Origin: Candidatus Undinarchaeota archaeon
Lineage (GTDB): Archaea; SpSt-1190; JASMDC01
Length of the DNA stretch: 64,000 nt
Assembly (NCBI GenBank): GCA_964519305.1
Contig: CAZFHY010000008.1
Coordinates: forward strand, 1-64,000
Direction of reading: 5' to 3'
Shown here: positions 1-10,136 of the stretch, piece after piece
How the letters are laid out: each line of letters opens with the position of its first letter
How positions within the stretch are numbered: position 1 is the stretch's first letter
The notes under the pieces: generated by a model
Told to the model about the DNA's origin: nothing
What the model saw: the letters and a program-made list of their open reading frames with translations, nothing else
Database searches by the model: none
Made by a program: the position numbers and the translations under genes

Positions 1-58
1 TTTGAATCTCGCTATAAATCGCTGACGGGAGCGCGTCTGAAGTCCTTATCCGTTAGGC
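1..58 (+). mobile_element. attC-like recombination site, 3' part (truncated by window start); R' core GTTAGGC at 52-58
   Basis: 1-54 aligns with the 3' halves of the elements at 656-799 and 2331-2479 and ends in a GTTRRRY core. Confidence 0.7.
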
Positions 59-142
59 GACAACGTTCCCGTAATGGAAAACCATAAATATACAAACGTA
101 TACTTATGTATACAGATGTAAATCTATCAAGAGGTAATCATT

Positions 143-382
143 ATGACTGCTACCACGATCAGAATACACGATGATACAAAGCATGATCTGGATCTATTAA
201 GGGAATATCGGAATGAAAGCTATGATGAAGTTATTAAGAAAATCCTCTTTATCATGAAGAATTACAAGACCGAACCTGAATTGAGTCAGGAGACAATTGA
301 TTCGATCGAAAGAGCGAGGGAAAGGATAAAGAAAGGAGCTTTCTTATCTGAAGACGAAGCGAGAAAGAGGCTTGGCCTTTAA
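143..382 (+). CDS. antitoxin (RHH-like N-terminus) of a RelBE-type TA pair
   Basis: TTIRI...L..LR...ESYDEVI N-terminus and C-terminal SEDEARKRLGL; stop overlaps the toxin start; AT-rich. Confidence 0.8.
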   Translation: MTATTIRIHDDTKHDLDLLREYRNESYDEVIKKILFIMKNYKTEPELSQETIDSIERARERIKKGAFLSEDEARKRLGL

Positions 383-642
383 TGTATGAACTTGTCTTTG
401 ATGAGGAAGTAATTGAATTTCTCAAGAAATTACCGGAAGCGACTCGAAAGAGGATTTTCGATAAGATCGTATCATCTAAAGTGAATCCCTTCTTTTTCTT
501 TGAGAGATTAAAAGGAAGACGAGATTTCAGAATGCGTATCGGGGATTACAGGGCAATCGCAGATATCGATTCAAAAAAGAAGGTGATTCAAGTTACTTTG
601 GTCGGGCATAGGAAGAATATCTACAAGAAACTCCGACGATGA
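382..642 (+). CDS. relE: RelE/ParE-family mRNA interferase toxin
   Basis: FRMRIGDYRAI and VGHRKNIY motifs; 86 aa, basic. Confidence 0.9.
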   Translation: MYELVFDEEVIEFLKKLPEATRKRIFDKIVSSKVNPFFFFERLKGRRDFRMRIGDYRAIADIDSKKKVIQVTLVGHRKNIYKKLRR

Positions 643-655
643 GGGAACGTCAATC

Positions 656-799
656 GCCTAACAACCGGCCTTCTAGCTCCGGGCCGCTGAGACGACCCTC
701 CGCCAACACGCCCCCGTGAGATCCTGGGGCCTAGCTGACCTGAGCTCTGCTTGAAAAACACTGGACGGGGACGCGATAGAAGGCCTTGATCCGTTATCC
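656..799 (+). mobile_element. attC-like site (144 bp)
   Basis: R'' GCCTAAC 656-662, 13 bp after the relE stop; inner inverted repeat GGCCTTCTA/TAGAAGGCC; R' GTTATCC 793-799; homologous to 2331-2479. Confidence 0.8.
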
Positions 800-890
800 G
801 CACATCGCCACCACCTGTCTTGTTCCTTCGCTAGTACGCCTGACCAAGCCATAACAGCGCAGCTGTATACCCTCATCCGATAAATCAATC
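793..890 (+). repeat. ~100-bp dispersed repeat, copy 1 (copy 2 at 4087-4183)
   Basis: gttatccgcacatcgccaccacctgtc...gctagtacgcctgacc...acagcgcagctgtataccctcatc is near-identical to 4087 onward. Confidence 0.9.
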
Positions 891-994
891 CATCACCCCC
901 CGGAGGGGTATATAGAACTTCTTATCCCGGCGCGACCACTTGTTTGTATGAGAGCTCATGGGCCCCTCTCGCGAACCAAAAAGTATTTATCCGC

Positions 995-1012
995 GGTAAG
1001 ATATATCTTACC
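995..1012. promoter_or_regulatory. perfect 18-bp palindrome GGTAAGATATATCTTACC, probable antitoxin operator
   Basis: lies between a TATA-like TATTTAT (~984-990) and the ATG at 1024 of an AbrB-type antitoxin. Confidence 0.65.
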
Positions 1013-1023
1013 TAGGTGCGTCA

Positions 1024-1290
1024 ATGGACATCGCGATCACGAAGCTGAGCTCCAAAGGACAGGTCGTCATCCCCTCCGAAATGAGGGAGGGCCTACAGGA
1101 GGGGGATAAATTGATAATCATCAAGAACGGACCCCAGTTCATCCTGAAGAAGGCCACTGAACTCGAGGAACAGTTCACGGAGGACCTCGAATTCGCCAGG
1201 AGGACCGAAGAGGCGCTCGCCCGCTATGAGAAGGGTGAGTTCAAGGAGATGACCAAGGAAGAATTCGAGAAAGAGCTGGAAGAATGGTAG
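1024..1290 (+). CDS. AbrB/MazE/SpoVT-family antitoxin
   Basis: KLSSKGQVVIPSEMRE..L.EGD motif; acidic C-terminus; overlaps the toxin. Confidence 0.88.
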   Translation: MDIAITKLSSKGQVVIPSEMREGLQEGDKLIIIKNGPQFILKKATELEEQFTEDLEFARRTEEALARYEKGEFKEMTKEEFEKELEEW

Positions 1291-1532
1291 CGGTAGCATA
1301 TGATACCCTCTTCAAGAAGAAGATCAAGGGGATCAAGGATGAATCACTGAAGACCAAGGTCAAGAAGAAGATACGGAAGATCGTGAATTCCCCTACCACT
1401 GGAAAGCCGATGAGGTTCTCAAGAAAGGGAACGAGGGAAATCCATATCGCTCCATATAGATTATCGTACATGTACATTGAAAGCGAGGACAAGGTCATCT
1501 TCCTTGACCTTTATCATAAGGATGCACAATAG
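1284..1532 (+). CDS. RelE/ParE-family toxin
   Basis: P..GKPMR...KGTREIHIAPYRLSY and C-terminal YHKD motifs. Confidence 0.85.
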   Translation: MVAVAYDTLFKKKIKGIKDESLKTKVKKKIRKIVNSPTTGKPMRFSRKGTREIHIAPYRLSYMYIESEDKVIFLDLYHKDAQ

Positions 1533-1547
1533 GAGCCCCGTTCTTTC

Positions 1548-1569
1548 GTCAGCATACCTGTTAGCTGAC
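1548..1569 (+). mobile_element. short or collapsed recombination-site-like junction with R' core GTTAGCT (1560-1566)
   Basis: GTCAGC-atacctgtta-GCTGAC; GTTAGCTGACATCG is the inverse complement of CGACGTCAGCTAAC (2324-2337) with 1 mismatch. Confidence 0.55.
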
Positions 1570-1684
1570 ATCGGTCATACGAGCTATTTGGTTCTTAGAA
1601 CCTGACGGGAATGTTCGGATGTGCTAGGGGCTACACGCGGGTCCTCGTCAATACCCTTATATCACTACACTCCCCGGAAGCACC

Positions 1685-2236
1685 ATGAACGACAGCACGC
1701 TGCTGCATCTGATCCTCATCGTCGCCGTGCTCTCGCTTGCATCCAACGCCCTTGTGCTGGACCAGGTGCGGACATCGTCACGCTCTTCGACGTCCGCCTC
1801 GAACGCCCCGGGGAGCGGACCCCCGTCGAATTATCAAATCTACCAGGACTCCATGATCTTTTGCAGGGGGGATGAGGGATGCATCGAGGATCATAGCAAG
1901 TGCTATGACGGGTGCTCAGACCTATACTGGCAAGAACAGAATACAATAACTAAGGGCGCTTTTCATAGTCAAGTATGCTATCTGTTCTGCAATGAGTGCA
2001 TCTCGGCATGCACGGGTGCGACGACGAGTCGATGCGAATGCAGGTACGACGACATCCTTGGGGGATTGAGAATGGACAGGTTCGTCATCGGAACCATCAG
2101 GGATGTCGTGCGTATCTGTGACCACGATCACACGTGCATCCAGAACTGCGTGGAAGCTATCAAGATCAACGGCGAGCTCCCCTCGGGGGAGGGATTGACA
2201 GCTTCCTGCTTAAGGCCCAATGAGACTGCAGGATGA
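1685..2236 (+). CDS. membrane-anchored/secreted Cys-rich protein, cassette paralog 1 (14 Cys)
   Basis: MND..LL hydrophobic anchor, GPPSN motif, CxxxC arrays; TATA-like CTTATATC ~25 bp upstream. Confidence 0.8.
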   Translation: MNDSTLLHLILIVAVLSLASNALVLDQVRTSSRSSTSASNAPGSGPPSNYQIYQDSMIFCRGDEGCIEDHSKCYDGCSDLYWQEQNTITKGAFHSQVCYLFCNECISACTGATTSRCECRYDDILGGLRMDRFVIGTIRDVVRICDHDHTCIQNCVEAIKINGELPSGEGLTASCLRPNETAG

Positions 2237-2330
2237 GTTCGCTGGGCATTTCGTATGCTCACAAGGAGGCGTAGTGCCCTTGCTGGGAATTGAACTAAAA
2301 GAATAGATGTCAATAATTCAGAACGACGTC

Positions 2331-2479
2331 AGCTAACAACCGGACTCACGGTTCCGGGCCGTCATTGTCATTCCGGCCCTCCATCCACACGGGCCCGTGA
2401 GATCCTCGAGCTTCGCTGGTTTGAACTTAGCCTAGAAAACGCGACATGGGCCCGCGTTTCATGCTCCGGACCGTTAGTT
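2331..2479 (+). mobile_element. attC-like site (149 bp)
   Basis: R'' AGCTAAC 2331-2337 ... R' GTTAGTT 2473-2479; shares ctaacaaccgg, tccgggccg and cccgtgagatcct blocks with 656-799. Confidence 0.8.
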
Positions 2480-2597
2480 GACATCGGTCGTACGGACTTA
2501 TTGACGCTGAGCCCCTGTCGGAAAGGTGCGGATGCGCTCGGGACTACGCGCCGATGCCCATCAACATGCTTATATCACTGTGTATCCCAAAATTGTC

Positions 2598-3167
2598 ATG
2601 GACGACCGGACGCTGCTCCACATCGTGCTGACGCTGGTCGTGTTCAACATAGCGCTCAACGCGTACACTCTGACCGAGATGCGACAGCTGGGTTCGCGGG
2701 CGGCGGCCGAGTCCATTGGTCCCCCTCCTGCCAATCCCTACTTCGACATCATGCAGGGCAGTATTACCTTTCTTAGTGAATGTCATAGAGACTGCATAGA
2801 TGCGCAGCTTGCGTGCTTGACTCCGTGCACTGAACACTTTAGCACTGAGTACTTGGACTTGAAGTCGTACTCTATGTGTGTTAATAATTGTAACCAAGAA
2901 TATCTTACGTGCAGGGACCCCTGTGATAAAAACTGTGGTCGTGAATCTCATGATGACACTTGCGGTGAATATGGAGGCTGGGAAAAGGACAATGATCCAT
3001 ATCCCCGCTTGATAACAATACAAAGAGAATGCAAATCTCGATGTAGAAAGGAGTGTGGAGAGAACATTACGGACTGGGACAGTAGCAATGATCCCTTCGG
3101 CCGCTTAGACGAATGCTTGGATCGATGTGGAAAGGAGTGTCCGAGTATTGTCTTTACTGTACCCTAG
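2598..3167 (+). CDS. membrane-anchored/secreted Cys-rich protein, cassette paralog 2 (16 Cys)
   Basis: start moved to ATG 2598 by homology with paralog 1 (MDDRTLLH...GPPPAN); same CTTATATC leader. Confidence 0.8.
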   Translation: MDDRTLLHIVLTLVVFNIALNAYTLTEMRQLGSRAAAESIGPPPANPYFDIMQGSITFLSECHRDCIDAQLACLTPCTEHFSTEYLDLKSYSMCVNNCNQEYLTCRDPCDKNCGRESHDDTCGEYGGWEKDNDPYPRLITIQRECKSRCRKECGENITDWDSSNDPFGRLDECLDRCGKECPSIVFTVP

Positions 3168-3276
3168 TTCCGGGTGAATAACCGCCACGGGAAAAGGCGC
3201 GATATTCATGCGTTTTACTAGTACGGGGCAACGCCCCCGTCCATAGGCTTTTATCCCTGCACGTCCTAGAAGCACC

Positions 3277-4047
3277 ATGAACGACCGATCCCTGCTCCGC
3301 GCTGTGCTCATCATCGTCGCGCTCTCGCTCGTCATCAACGTCTCAACCCTGAGCGAGCTCGGGAAGCAGGCGACCGGGGCACCGGCCGGCGGGCCGCCGG
3401 CGAACACTGGTGACTTTTCCCCGGCACCCGACAACCCCTGGATATGGTGCGGGGATACCACGTCCGGCTGCAAGGAGTGCTATCCCTGCGAGGACGATTG
3501 CGAGGAGGTCTCCCGGAAGCATGGTGAGCAGCAGATCGAGGAGGCGCTGAGGATGGCGGAGGAGCAGGGGATCCTGGATGAGATGGGCAAAGACCAGTTC
3601 CTCGAAGAGATCAGCTGGCACGTGCAGCAGCAGGTCGAGGCCAACCGGACCGCCTGCGAGAAGCAGGTGGAGCAGTGCATCGCCAGCAGCAAGGTCGACA
3701 TGAACGCCTGCTTCCGGGGGTGCAAGGAGGCGCGCAACACCTGCTTCGAGCCGTGCAGGCAGTTCGTCATCGAGTGGATCGAGGTCGAGAAGGCAGACGG
3801 CAATGAGCTATTCCTGGAAAGGGCGGAGTTCTTCCTTCCCGAGCACTTCTCAAGGGTCTTCAGCAAATGCCTCCACTGCTTCGATGAGCAGACCGCCTGC
3901 GTGGAGCAGTGCACGGTGACAACGGACACGTGCCCCGATCCGTGCTCCCTGACAAGAGAGAAGAAGGATATCTGCGTGGCTACCGTTTTACATCGCGACG
4001 CCCAAAATTGCTTGTGGACGATTTACGACCGTTGCCAGGGGACATGA
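3277..4047 (+). CDS. membrane-anchored/secreted Cys-rich protein, cassette paralog 3 (20 Cys)
   Basis: MNDRSLL...GGPPAN; gaagcaccATGaacgac start context identical to paralog 1. Confidence 0.8.
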   Translation: MNDRSLLRAVLIIVALSLVINVSTLSELGKQATGAPAGGPPANTGDFSPAPDNPWIWCGDTTSGCKECYPCEDDCEEVSRKHGEQQIEEALRMAEEQGILDEMGKDQFLEEISWHVQQQVEANRTACEKQVEQCIASSKVDMNACFRGCKEARNTCFEPCRQFVIEWIEVEKADGNELFLERAEFFLPEHFSRVFSKCLHCFDEQTACVEQCTVTTDTCPDPCSLTREKKDICVATVLHRDAQNCLWTIYDRCQGT

Positions 4048-4070
4048 ACAAATATCGATAATTCTTACCG

Positions 4071-4098
4071 ACGTCAGATAAAATGAGTTATCCGCACC
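4071..4098. mobile_element. 28-bp dif/attI-like simple site ACGTCAGATAA-AATGAG-TTATCCGCACC
   Basis: 11-6-11 geometry with GATAA/TTATC inverted core; sits where an attC is expected after paralog 3. Confidence 0.55.
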
Positions 4099-4183
4099 TC
4101 GCCACCACCTGTCCTGTTACTTCGCTAGTACGCCTGACCTAGCCTTACAGCGCAGCTGTTTACCCTCATCTGTTAATTAATTC
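4087..4183 (+). repeat. ~100-bp dispersed repeat, copy 2
   Basis: near-identical to 793-890 with a few substitutions and one 1-bp indel. Confidence 0.9.
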
Positions 4184-4329
4184 AATTTCTACTCCCGGTC
4201 GTCACGGATCCATTTATTCAACGGGATATCTATGATCTTTCAGTGCGGGCGCATGTCACCAATAATATCATAATCGTGACAATATATTATCATAACTATT
4301 ATATACTCGAAGCTGCATAAAGAGGTGAT

Positions 4330-4596
4330 ATGGTGGTAATCAGACCGATTTCCGATCTCCGCAACCGTTTCAACGAGATCTCAGAGCTCTGCCACAAGGA
4401 GGGGGGGCCCGTCTACATCACGAAGAACGGGAAAGGTGACCTCGTCGTCATGAGCATCGCACGGTACGAGGAGCAACAGGCCTTGCTCGAGCTCTACCAG
4501 AGCCTTGCCGTCGCTGAGCAGCAGAGCTCATCGAAAGGGGGCCGGAGGACGCATGGGGAGATGATGGCGCTATTGAGGAAGAGGCTCCATGGCTAG
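4330..4596 (+). CDS. Phd/YefM-family antitoxin
   Basis: IRPISDLRN.F.EIS...PVYITKNGKGDLVVMS motif; GAGGTG RBS. Confidence 0.92.
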   Translation: MVVIRPISDLRNRFNEISELCHKEGGPVYITKNGKGDLVVMSIARYEEQQALLELYQSLAVAEQQSSSKGGRRTHGEMMALLRKRLHG

Positions 4597-4894
4597 GAAG
4601 TACATCATCGAGTACCTGCCCGTCGCGCAGACGGACCTCTTCGAGATCTTCGATTACATCAGGAAGGACGACCCTGACTCGGCCGGGGACTTCGTCAAGA
4701 GGATGGACGAGGTCGTACGACAGCTGGCGACGTTCCCGGAGATGGGGGTTGTTCCAAGGGACGCCCGGCTCGGATCGATGGGCTACCGGATGCTCGTTAT
4801 CGATCCCTACCTCGTGTTCTACGTCGTCAGGGACGGGCTAGTGGAGGTCCGGAGGATTCTTCACGGATGCCGTAAGTTTTCGTTCCTCCTGTGA
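4589..4894 (+). CDS. ParE/RelE-family toxin
   Basis: A..DL.EI.DYI..D.P..A, FPEMG, YR.L...YLVFY and RILHG motifs. Confidence 0.9.
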   Translation: MARKYIIEYLPVAQTDLFEIFDYIRKDDPDSAGDFVKRMDEVVRQLATFPEMGVVPRDARLGSMGYRMLVIDPYLVFYVVRDGLVEVRRILHGCRKFSFLL

Positions 4895-4908: not shown

Positions 4909-6267
4909 TCACTGCCATCGCACGGTGTACGTGAGCAAGGGCGCCCCGCCGATCGAACACCTCCGTGAGCTCTCGACGCGACCCGAACCCGGTGACCATT
5001 TCCCGTCAGGGCCGCACTGGACCGTATTGGCCGACGTGACGTTGACATCATCGGAGACCATCAGATAGGACCTGGCGTTACCGGGATTGTTGTCGGTAAC
5101 CTTCATCGTCCGGCCATCCTTGTAGAGCGTGATGGTCCGGGTGAACGTCTGGTAGGTGCCCCCCTCGCCCGAGTTTAGGGAATAGGAGAACCCGAGCTCG
5201 TACCTGTCGGCGTGCTCGGTCCTCTGGACAGCGTCCTTCCCCACCACGACCGAGGCCGTGGCCCTCCAGGAGCCCAGGTAGCGCAGGAGGTCAAGACGGT
5301 CCGTGTCCTTCTGCGTGAAGTCGTTGCCGAGCCTGTCCGCGGACTGGATGTTGAGGTTCATCTTATCGTCCAGGTCCTCGCTGGTCTTGAGACCGTAGCC
5401 GGGGTAGCCCACCGGCCGCAGACGCCAGCTCCCGTCGTACCAGAGCCAGACCGCACCGAAGTCGAACGGTACGTGCAGGTCGTGCCTCAGTACAGTGCCC
5501 GGTGTCGTGTTGTTCACCGGGTGCCTGAGCAGCAGGTAGCCCTTCCCGCCGTCGAAGAACACTACGGTCTCGTGATCGGTGTGGACGATGCGGTCGACCG
5601 CACGGTCAGCGGTCCGGGAACCTTTGTATGTCGCGTCCAGCCGGGTGTCGCCGATGGGCGCGAGAGTCCCGTCGGGCAGCGCGAGGTCCGCGAGCCATCT
5701 GTCCGCCGCTCTCTCGAACTCGAGAAGGTCAGCATCGTCGTACTGCCGGTTCGCGAGTCTGACCGCGGCCAGGGTGTAGACGAGGTAGCTGCTGCCCTCG
5801 TACCACGTGACGTAGCCGTCCGAGGTGAAACCGAACCCCGCTAGCTTGGCCTTCACGGGGGCCAGGTCGGGCGCGTAGGAGGCGTCCTTCTTTTGCATCA
5901 GCAGCATCCGGATGAGATCACTGCGTATGGCAAGGTTGTTCGAGCGCAACGGGTTCGCTGTATCAATCGCGCCGATCCCGGTGCTCGTCCCGGCGAGGAA
6001 GGAGTCGAGGAGTTCCAGCGCGCGGTCCGTGTCGAACTCACGCTCGTTCTCAAGGCACCAGAGCAGTTCGTCCTGAAGGTCGGCGAGCTTGCTCGTGTCC
6101 ATACCGATGCTATCACCGTACCGCATGTCGTCCAGGGAGCAGTCGACCGCGTCCGTACCGATAGTGGCCGGGCCTGACGACCATGAGCTCCCCGCGATGA
6201 GAGCTGAGATGACGATGACGACGAGCACGAGCGTGCGACCGCTGGGTCCGCAATCAAGGTCCGGCAT
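4909..6267 (-). CDS. secreted heparinase II/III-like (polysaccharide lyase-type) protein
   Basis: N-terminal TM segment; YEGSSY, LPDGTLAPIGDT and H..H..D...L.YDG motifs. Confidence 0.55.
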   Translation of the reverse strand: MPDLDCGPSGRTLVLVVIVISALIAGSSWSSGPATIGTDAVDCSLDDMRYGDSIGMDTSKLADLQDELLWCLENEREFDTDRALELLDSFLAGTSTGIGAIDTANPLRSNNLAIRSDLIRMLLMQKKDASYAPDLAPVKAKLAGFGFTSDGYVTWYEGSSYLVYTLAAVRLANRQYDDADLLEFERAADRWLADLALPDGTLAPIGDTRLDATYKGSRTADRAVDRIVHTDHETVVFFDGGKGYLLLRHPVNNTTPGTVLRHDLHVPFDFGAVWLWYDGSWRLRPVGYPGYGLKTSEDLDDKMNLNIQSADRLGNDFTQKDTDRLDLLRYLGSWRATASVVVGKDAVQRTEHADRYELGFSYSLNSGEGGTYQTFTRTITLYKDGRTMKVTDNNPGNARSYLMVSDDVNVTSANTVQCGPDGKWSPGSGRVESSRRCSIGGAPLLTYTVRWQ

Positions 6268-9071: not shown

Positions 9072-9182
9072 TACTTAAGCCGTTAATTCGGTTATCCGGT
9101 CGCTCCGAACGGAGTGTCACTGCCCAGTAAAGACAACCTTTATATAGCCGCCTGCCCCCGGAACCGCCCCGGAGGACCTGAC

Positions 9183-10136
9183 TTGTACTGTGCATCGGAC
9201 ATCGACCTGGAATCCGACGGGTACGGTGGCTCGAATGCTGCTGAGAGCACGATAGCATCACAGGACCTCCAGTGCTCCAAGGTCACCCGGTACCTTCTCC
9301 AGGCGGCTACTCTGGTCGGTGCCTCTTACGGACTTGACGTGTTCTGCTCCTACATGGTCAGCCGCTCCGGTAACTGGATGCAGGATCCCGGAGAGTACCT
9401 CACTCCTGAAGCCCAGACCAGGGTCGCGGAGGCAGTGGACGCCGAGGACGTATGGGCGGAAGTAGGCAAGGACCTCTCGTCTTACTCTGCAACGGACCTC
9501 GTGGAACGTGTGCATGAGAAGGTGATGGGCCACCTTGATTTCGATTGGGACTATACGTGCACAGGTGTTGACAACGCCTTGGCAGAACAGGAGGGCATCT
9601 GCTTCGACTACGCAGGCATGACCTACGGAACGCTACTGAAGCTCGCTTCCGACCATCCCGAGCTTGCCGATCATCTCGAGGACGTGCGTTGGGCCTTCGG
9701 GGTGCGGGGTGAAGAAGCCACCCAGCATTCCTGGCTACAGGTGCGTGGCGATGATGGGGCATGGCATGATTACGAGACCGCTGTTGACGTGGTCACTCCC
9801 AACTGGGACCATGCGGAAGTGCTCCGTACCAATCCACCGCTGGATCGCGGCGGTTACAGCCTCATCGGTGCCCTTCAGATGGATGTCGACGGGGCGATCG
9901 AACGTGATGTCGAGTGGGGGAACGTCCTCCTGCCCAAGGCAGGTGCGGGCGAGGGCATGGTGAACCGCTATGAGCAGCTCTCGGGTCATGATATACCCAA
10001 CGACATCGAGGCCTACATCCCTGAAACGCTCGCCATAACAGCTGCTGGCCTCGGTATCGCACGCGGGGTAAAGCTCTCACTGAAGGCCGCCGGGAGCCTC
10101 GTTCGCGGACGTGACCGGGACAAGGAGAAGGAATAG
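9183..10136 (+). CDS. membrane-associated transglutaminase-like (Cys-His-Asp/Glu) protein
   Basis: GICFDYA, HSWLQV and WHDYET motifs; TTG start after GGAGG and TTTATATAG. Confidence 0.65.
   Translation: MYCASDIDLESDGYGGSNAAESTIASQDLQCSKVTRYLLQAATLVGASYGLDVFCSYMVSRSGNWMQDPGEYLTPEAQTRVAEAVDAEDVWAEVGKDLSSYSATDLVERVHEKVMGHLDFDWDYTCTGVDNALAEQEGICFDYAGMTYGTLLKLASDHPELADHLEDVRWAFGVRGEEATQHSWLQVRGDDGAWHDYETAVDVVTPNWDHAEVLRTNPPLDRGGYSLIGALQMDVDGAIERDVEWGNVLLPKAGAGEGMVNRYEQLSGHDIPNDIEAYIPETLAITAAGLGIARGVKLSLKAAGSLVRGRDRDKEKE

Follow-up and report, generated by a model that had tools for sequence, protein, structure and literature searches.

What moves gene cassettes in an archaeal chromosome that contains no canonical integron integrase? 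This question is raised by the first 64 kb of contig C8 of a Candidatus Undinarchaeota archaeon (the window; genome G000, 3.63 Mb in 42 contigs, 99.8% complete), where small genes at positions 1-4894 are interspersed with repeated elements that resemble attC sites. The contig is archaeal, as its RadA and AMP phosphorylase genes score above cut-off, and the runs containing the window stretch are marine. In this study, we found that positions 1-4894 are probably the distal end of a chromosomal cassette array, likely built and shuffled by a short tyrosine recombinase, encoded on contig C14, that lacks I2, the additional domain specific to integron integrases (IntI). The array itself is hardly in doubt, and the C14 enzyme is very probably its cognate integrase. 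Since the cassette order varies, yet the probable recombinase lacks a segment thought to be indispensable, the system is likely a second, non-standard kind of integron. An initial annotation had proposed an integron attC/cassette architecture and the distal end of an array. The position in the array and the cassette architecture are supported; canonical attC sites and a canonical IntI are not, as no recombinase with I2 was found and only 1 of 22 aligned sites fits the canonical register. One genome of the same genus, G001 (98% complete), was used for comparison, and 15 other genomes of the phylum (completeness 72-94%) for wider comparison.

Distribution of the attC-like sites

Elements at 1-58 (partial), 656-799 and 2331-2479 had been described as homologous and as bounded by a YTAAC core at one end and a GTT core at the other. 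The coordinates were correct, and homology was found at 71% identity over 86 nt (E 7e-4). The first element is the 3' end of a site inside which the contig begins, with the G|TT crossover at 52|53; the other two are full sites of 144 and 149 nt. All three lie on the forward strand. A profile built from six sites gave 8 matches in G000 at E <0.01, six of which were the seeds. All site matches in G000 fell into three clusters, at the start of the window, at 129-132 kb of C8 and at the end of C17, at unit seams and in one orientation per cluster. A covariance model, which matches its training sites by construction and scored at most 150 candidates per genome, gave 7 matches in G000, 27 in G001 across nine contigs and none in the 15 other genomes of the phylum. 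These results support the earlier view of a lineage-specific family of long sites. The elements had also been said to separate genes; sites do lie at seams, but only two of the five window units end in a full site. Full sites are absent before the GTT at 1560, between the genes at 3167 and 3277, and after 4894. On C8, two or more sites lie less than 4 kb apart and no integrase was found; however, the geometry of the sites is non-canonical, and position 1 is a contig break. The second cluster on C8 (L039, G000:C8:128275-131980) begins about 1 kb past a tRNA-like sequence and contains decayed sites.

A length of 130-150 nt, internal palindromes and several loci per genome would also suit dispersed repeats of the repetitive extragenic palindromic or miniature inverted-repeat transposable element type, or terminators, beside a toxin-antitoxin island. 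However, the matches in G000 form three co-oriented clusters at unit seams, none of the sites matched Rfam, and terminator-like sites were not in excess. Such repeats also cannot explain unit starts that match their own ends. With cassette-end matching and order variation as described below, this explanation is largely refuted and extremely improbable.

Cassette ends and cassette order

We compared the first seven bases of each cassette with its own closing core in 19 distinct cassettes from both genomes (20 were listed, one duplicate was dropped, and two rows of the metagenomic contig L033 were omitted). The match was 7/7 in 11 cassettes and at least 6/7 in 16, and complementarity of the ends extended up to about 12 bases further. 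When cassettes and ends were re-paired, 0 of 20000 trials reached the score for the variable core bases or for the outer stem. In the window, 52-70 pairs with 643-662 and 1559-1576 with 2321-2338, so that the complementary ends are present and longer than had been claimed.

The initial annotation had suggested comparing the cassette order in related genomes. The order is not fixed: five cassettes common to G000 and G001 have different neighbours in G001. The DUF7557/RelE cassette was found on C26 of G001. The Phd/ParE and AbrB/RelE cassettes were found on C53 in reversed order compared with the window, each closed by a site (the first site is partly decayed), and two cassettes of the 129-132 kb cluster recur on C53 and C82. 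A parE remnant on G001:C82 has an attC-like arm attached at an internal GTT (window 4816). The conserved chromosomal flank gene at 4909-6267 (reverse strand) has an orthologue in G001 that also adjoins an array, with other content. These results indicate that the place of the array is inherited and its content mobile.

Assembled contigs of four runs from two studies were compared with the window. In runs X1 and X3, contigs match window 1-55 and then run on for 1255 letters that differ from cassette 1 and contain a further site start. In each of the four runs, 24 letters preceding position 50 fail to align in the contig with cassette 1, which gives this cassette a different 5' neighbour according to the record coordinates. 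Six bases common at the seam are too few for an assembler mis-join; the window form therefore likely lacks at least one cassette that those runs contain, the break lying at G|TT. Loose ends at window 655-716 and 2334-2403 (runs X1, X3, X5 and X7) led to more contigs with family sites, whose flanks are unlike the G000 clusters read; these contigs are candidate pieces of the unassembled middle of the array.

Structure of the attC-like sites

The site alignment (A3) held 22 of the 31 profile matches; partial, duplicate and contig-cut matches were excluded, and the C82 sites were found later. RNAalifold analysis of the 22 aligned bottom strands predicted a TAAC/GTTA core with a G.T pair, 5 and 3 unpaired bases, an inner stem and a three-way junction. 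The consensus has 25 pairs, 15 of them with compensatory change. Under the consensus, 90.7% of cells were paired, compared with 35-43% for slid partners, and 0 of 500 shuffles reached this value, a control that relatedness among the sites inflates. Two G.T wobbles (18/22 and 21/22 sites) are possible on the bottom strand only, and the bottom strand was more stable than the top in 19/22 sites. Bottom-strand folding had been proposed as a check, and R'' and R' do pair in the family consensus. Both boxes, R'' (RYYYAAC) and R' (GTTRRRY), are present in the sites.

In the canonical attC register, the spacers are 5 and 5-6 nt long, and a base bulges out at position 4 of L''. Only site 2331 fits this register of spacer and extrahelical base at 6/7 among the 22 sites. 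The family register has a 4/6-7 nt spacer, in which 14/22 sites reach at least 6/7 inner-stem pairs. A Chryseobacterium plasmid (NZ_CP041688, L148:4980-10800) encodes a short integrase with an N-terminal extension; behind it lie three YAAC...GTT sites whose arms are identical and whose spacer is 3/3.

The initial annotation had named three observations that would speak against its proposal: dispersed repeats unrelated to gene boundaries, bottom strands in which R'' and R' fail to pair, and a fixed gene order. None of them was made, since the sites lie clustered at gene seams, R'' and R' pair, and the order varies.

The short integrase on contig C14

Four tyrosine recombinases were found in G000 (PF00589). 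The sole IntI relative among them is encoded at C14:108930-109994, and its best PDB match is VchIntIA (2a3v). Against TIGR02249, it scores 237 bits (cut-off 265), and the match is split around positions 170-232 with the middle missing. Between two catalytic motifs it has 70 residues, compared with 110-111 in three canonical IntIs; the missing 40-41 residues correspond to I2, and the same was found in G001. A search for a recombinase with the IntI-specific insertion, as the initial annotation had recommended, found no canonical IntI or other such enzyme in G000 or G001. R205, K230, H295, R298, H321 and Y330 are present in an open frame, and R205, H295, R298, H321 and Y330 are invariant across 98 homologues.

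The C14 enzyme has an extra 70-residue N-terminal domain. A good alignment-based structure model (predicted local distance difference test, pLDDT, 88) confidently placed it as a separate beta-alpha unit, while the single-sequence model was poor (pLDDT 40). The domain had no PDB match by sequence, and in the Atlas it matched only unnamed clusters under 0.9. Weak HARP matches to this domain (E up to 0.05) were found in 44 of the 98 homologues, the C14 protein itself not being among them.

Among 8000 scored candidates, 3213 integrase homologues had E <=1e-60, and the closest named relative (65%) is labelled Candidatus Undinarchaeales archaeon. G001 contains four short integrase copies. With the C14 integrase as query, no relative was found in 14 of the 15 other phylum genomes, and the exception is XerA-like. 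Phylogenetic analysis placed the short enzymes in one clade (98/85), separate from IntI (100/99) and from XerA-like proteins; the tree did not resolve how these three groups branch relative to one another. It excludes broken integrases, the G000 recombinases on C6 and C17, and L051 (no long frame), and contains XerC/D-type relatives as outgroup only. An archaeal XerA/dif housekeeping enzyme was considered and rejected in view of the four copies in G001, the patchy occurrence in the phylum and the separate tree branch. No XerA-like gene of the kind found in G012 was seen among the four PF00589 matches of G000, two of which were not placed in the tree.

Two tandem short integrase genes on G001:C31 (L016:23-2514) encode proteins 51% and 65% identical to the C14 enzyme. 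In an integrase on G001:C53 (L018:13556-14062), a large segment flanked by two short identical stretches is missing in frame, through either a real deletion or an assembly collapse. Paralogous uncharacterised genes lie at window 9114-10136, 4 kb past the far end of the array, and at G000:C14:107764-108798, just before the integrase.

attI-like heads and the probable link between C14 and C8

The initial annotation had placed a possible integrase before position 1; the window is the start of contig C8, and the candidate integrase and its putative attI are on C14. Downstream of the C14 integrase are two toxin-antitoxin-like pairs, followed by a conserved leader whose terminal GTTA, 1.45 kb behind the integrase gene, is also where the contig stops. 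This is a putative attI. The same leader was found on G001:C53, where five cassettes follow, starting directly at the attI-like site behind a short-integrase gene. Seven attI-like heads share ATAT, five or six bases, and G (GTTA in six). They are located on C14, on C17, at three places in G001, and one each in G017 and G067 (another archaeal phylum). Behind members of the short-integrase clade in G001, G017 and G067 lie this same motif and then cassettes. In the stretches read by eye, no attI-like head was found behind five XerA-like genes without the N-terminal domain.

A genome-wide search with the last 17 nt of C14, in which the final 9 nt had to be exact and up to 3 mismatches were allowed, gave a single near match, at window 4074-4090 with two differences. 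This truncated-attI-like seam (4074-4093; 15/17 nt identical to the end of C14) had gone unmentioned in the initial annotation. Of 84 contig ends, two stop at GTTA, the end of C14 and the first 55-mer of C8. About 0.5 such matches are expected anyway, so the weight of this hint lies in both being crossover points. Such ends fit branching of the assembly graph where cassettes vary. Synteny with G001 neither joins nor separates C14 and C8, and a metagenome scan gave one contig (L033), which repeats G001 cassettes and does not bridge the gap. Judged from sequence, the end of C14 and the start of C8 are reasonably likely to be two edges of one array.

Several heads lie apart from any integrase. 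At G000:C17:88030-90273 (L040), a second attI-like head without integrase is followed by two Cys-rich cassettes, and the end of this contig carries a 55-nt element with terminal inverted repeats that is common to the start of C28. attI leaders without integrase were also found at L141:1260-1368 (G001:C72 end) and L035:3490-3620 (G001:C23). The place of the C72 leader is orthologous to the C14 integrase locus, and the integrase is missing there.

These data bear on whether positions 1-4894 are an ordinary cluster of attC sites lacking integron-integrases (CALIN), whose canonical IntI disappeared or remained unassembled, with the short recombinase unrelated. CALINs are the commonest archaeal form according to one survey (PMC9668308), there is a contig break ahead of position 1, and the canonical register suits site 2331 at 6/7. 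However, a canonical IntI is absent from two genomes of 99.8% and 98% completeness, and 21/22 sites miss the canonical register. On G001:C53, a short-integrase gene is followed by an attI-like site at which cassettes of this family begin directly, and the window itself contains a fragment of the C14 attI. We consider a CALIN of this kind quite improbable.

Proposed mechanism

We propose that each site folds on the bottom strand as single-stranded DNA, and that the short integrase would cut at G|TT, release cassettes as circles and insert them at the attI-like site. The sites would use the 4/6-7 nt spacer, the G.T wobble and a long outer stem in place of the canonical extrahelical base, and with this alternative geometry I2 may be dispensable. 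The HARP-like N-terminal domain might, speculatively, read the folded site. Older units would have lost their sites and become fixed, and the three toxin-antitoxin pairs would guard the array against loss. Such single-strand recombination by the short integrase has a good probability. The same enzyme and array could instead recombine as double strands at short core sites, with the fold as an accessory binding or regulatory element. An Xer-sized enzyme without I2 fits this, as does the 4074 seam, which resembles exchange at the left box of attI, and IntI1 itself retains a double-strand route according to PMC4792948. However, covariation between distant arms and G.T pairs possible on the bottom strand only are hard to explain for a duplex site, and cassette ends become complementary only once the cassette is circular. 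The double-strand route is improbable, if slightly less so than the CALIN.

Several observations weigh against an array served by a short integrase acting on folded single strands. Sites 656-799 and 2331-2479, folded singly, were no better than shuffles (bottom strand z -1.3 and -1.25), so the structural claim rests on the family alignment, and the minimum-energy fold frequently leaves the R box open. The family register was picked from the same data in which only 14/22 sites reach 6/7, site 2331 fits the canonical register better, and the register is unlike the 1/5 spacer and 11-bp stem of the G017 and G067 sites. The C14 attI has a spacer one base shorter than 5/6 other heads and may for this reason be impaired. 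C14 and C8 are not connected by any sequence, and neither are their orthologous contigs in G001. The C14 integrase passes the archaeal XerA cut-off (232 vs 220), the short clade includes IS91-associated integrases, and two of the four G001 copies are broken. The co-occurrence of short integrases and arrays rests on two related genomes, and three of the four runs are possibly the source sample. The circle junctions that the initial annotation had proposed, 792-53 and 2472-1561, would be one base off, since a G|TT crossover would give 793-53 and 2473-1561; no circle junction was found in the contigs of the four runs, which is uninformative as contigs drop rare forms.

Cargo and cassette genesis

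The initial annotation had named toxin-antitoxin cassettes as typical integron cargo, and Pfam identified three such pairs at positions 1-4894, besides which there are three Cys-rich proteins. All are on the forward strand. Cassette 1 (53-793) is complete, with ends complementary over about 19 bases and an 86% identical cassette among different neighbours on G001:C26. It encodes a putative DUF7557-like antitoxin (143-382; weakly by Pfam, below cut-off) and a RelE/ParE-family toxin (382-642; Pfam), and its closing site, 656-799, has an inner stem 8/8 paired in the family register. Unit 2 (794-1560) encodes an AbrB/MazE-family antitoxin (1024-1290) and a RelE/StbE-family toxin (1284-1532), both by Pfam. 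It has lost its closing site, whereas a homologue on G001:C53 has a full one. The seam at 1547-1566 appears collapsed, with R''-like bases 2 nt before GTT and no intervening hairpin. The first 100 nt of unit 2 recur: this cassette start is found at 793-893 and 4087-4186 (90% over 91 nt), ahead of two different toxin-antitoxin pairs, with no further copy in G000, none in G001 and no conserved frame seen. Phd/YefM antitoxin (4330-4596) and ParE toxin (4589-4894), both by Pfam, follow the second copy; the Phd/YefM gene corresponds to the first cassette after attI in G001:C53, and the ParE gene has no closing site.

Cassette 3 (1561-2473), also complete and closed by site 2331-2479, encodes a Cys-rich protein with a conserved hydrophobic leader of the host (1685-2236), with a TATA-like box 28-29 nt upstream. 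Unit 4 (2474-4087) has two genes, is likely two fused cassettes and is closed by the attI fragment, not by attC. By sequence comparison, its Cys-rich products (2598-3167 and 3277-4047) belong to the same leader family, and the second is 64-68% identical to a single-gene C17 cassette. The Cys-rich cargo had no match in Pfam, NCBIfam, the Atlas or PADLOC. TATA-like boxes were found 23-59 nt upstream of 6/6 first genes (no control).

The Cys-rich leader is common to two C17 cassette genes and at least 12 genes outside arrays; one query did not find the family in G001. Fixed 5' and 3' frames, shared by cassette 3 and the C17 cassettes, occur at cassette copies only, and the payloads differ. On these sequence grounds, capture from the chromosome and escape from the array would fit the Cys-rich genes alike. 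It is possible, though rather unlikely, that this is a second archaeal integron class without I2, in which the HARP-like domain reads a differently folded site and cassettes are host-made, with a chromosomal family of exported proteins supplying the payloads that refill a fixed frame (5' end, promoter, export leader, 3' end). If true, frame refilling would be a DNA-level route of cassette genesis caught in one genome. According to PMC4792948, there is no reliable model of how cassettes arise. A host gene family that has five members in cassettes and paralogues in the chromosome, together with a TATA-binding-protein cassette in G001, makes the problem approachable. The latter (L018:9702-10286, G001:C53; PF00352, E 1.6e-53) is reversed inside a cassette with matching ends and is archaeal core-type cargo. 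In G017 (L019:1880-4440, C32), the first cassette behind a short integrase carries, by eye, an apparent methyltransferase and restriction enzyme. G000 (3.6 Mb) and G001 (3.8 Mb) are larger than 15 other genomes of the class (0.6-1.2 Mb).

Comparison with known systems

I2 is described as the domain through which integrases deal with extrahelical bases in folded attC sites (PMC4792948, PMC3053210), and it was the feature used to identify archaeal IntIs (PMC9668308). In the work on archaeal integrons and CALINs (Ghaly et al. 2022, PMC9668308), the archaeal host, clustered sites, attI 3' of the integrase gene, and toxin-antitoxin and signal-peptide cargo are alike. The same sources (PMC9668308; bioRxiv 10.1101/2022.02.06.479319) describe IntIs with the additional domain and attCs that fold canonically, neither of which is true here. 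In truncated-attI cassettes of class 1 and 2 integrons, about 11 nt of attI take the place of the closing attC (PMC12901181), which is comparable to window 4074-4086; here there is one instance, 9/11 nt identical, in a different system, and the likeness is one of sequence.

Archaeal XerA (PDB 4a8e, 5hxy; NF040815) resembles the C14 enzyme in catalytic-domain length, and its hidden Markov model cut-off is passed. In contrast, the C14 type branches separately from five DPANN-type XerA-like proteins, has four copies in G001, and has attI-like heads and cassettes behind it. The supported clade of the short enzymes (98/85) also takes in IS91-associated tyrosine recombinases (y4qK-like), but these precede an IS91 transposase, and no such transposase lies behind the C14 gene. 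Reports of short integron-integrase relatives in bacteria may also exist. No description of integrons with integrases this short was found in the literature covered, which mostly leaves out subscription journals.

The closest likeness is to sedentary chromosomal integrons (VchIntIA, 2a3v, the best PDB match of the integrase). YAAC...GTT cores, the G|TT crossover, a predicted bottom-strand fold, self-complementary cassettes, toxin-antitoxin cargo and a fixed chromosomal place with variable content are common to both. In contrast, the present integrase has no I2 and carries the extra 70-residue N-terminal domain; it is co-oriented with the array, and toxin-antitoxin genes lie between it and attI. 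The sites have a non-canonical spacer and an outer stem about 12 bp longer, and there are TATA-like boxes in the cassettes. A working cassette system without I2, if true, would widen the definition of the integron; some arrays described as integrase-less may then have an overlooked partner, and the short enzymes might represent a stage between Xer and IntI. These comparisons suggest that the system is built like an integron and appears to behave like one, yet lacks two defining canonical features, I2 in the integrase and the canonical spacer with its extrahelical base in the sites.

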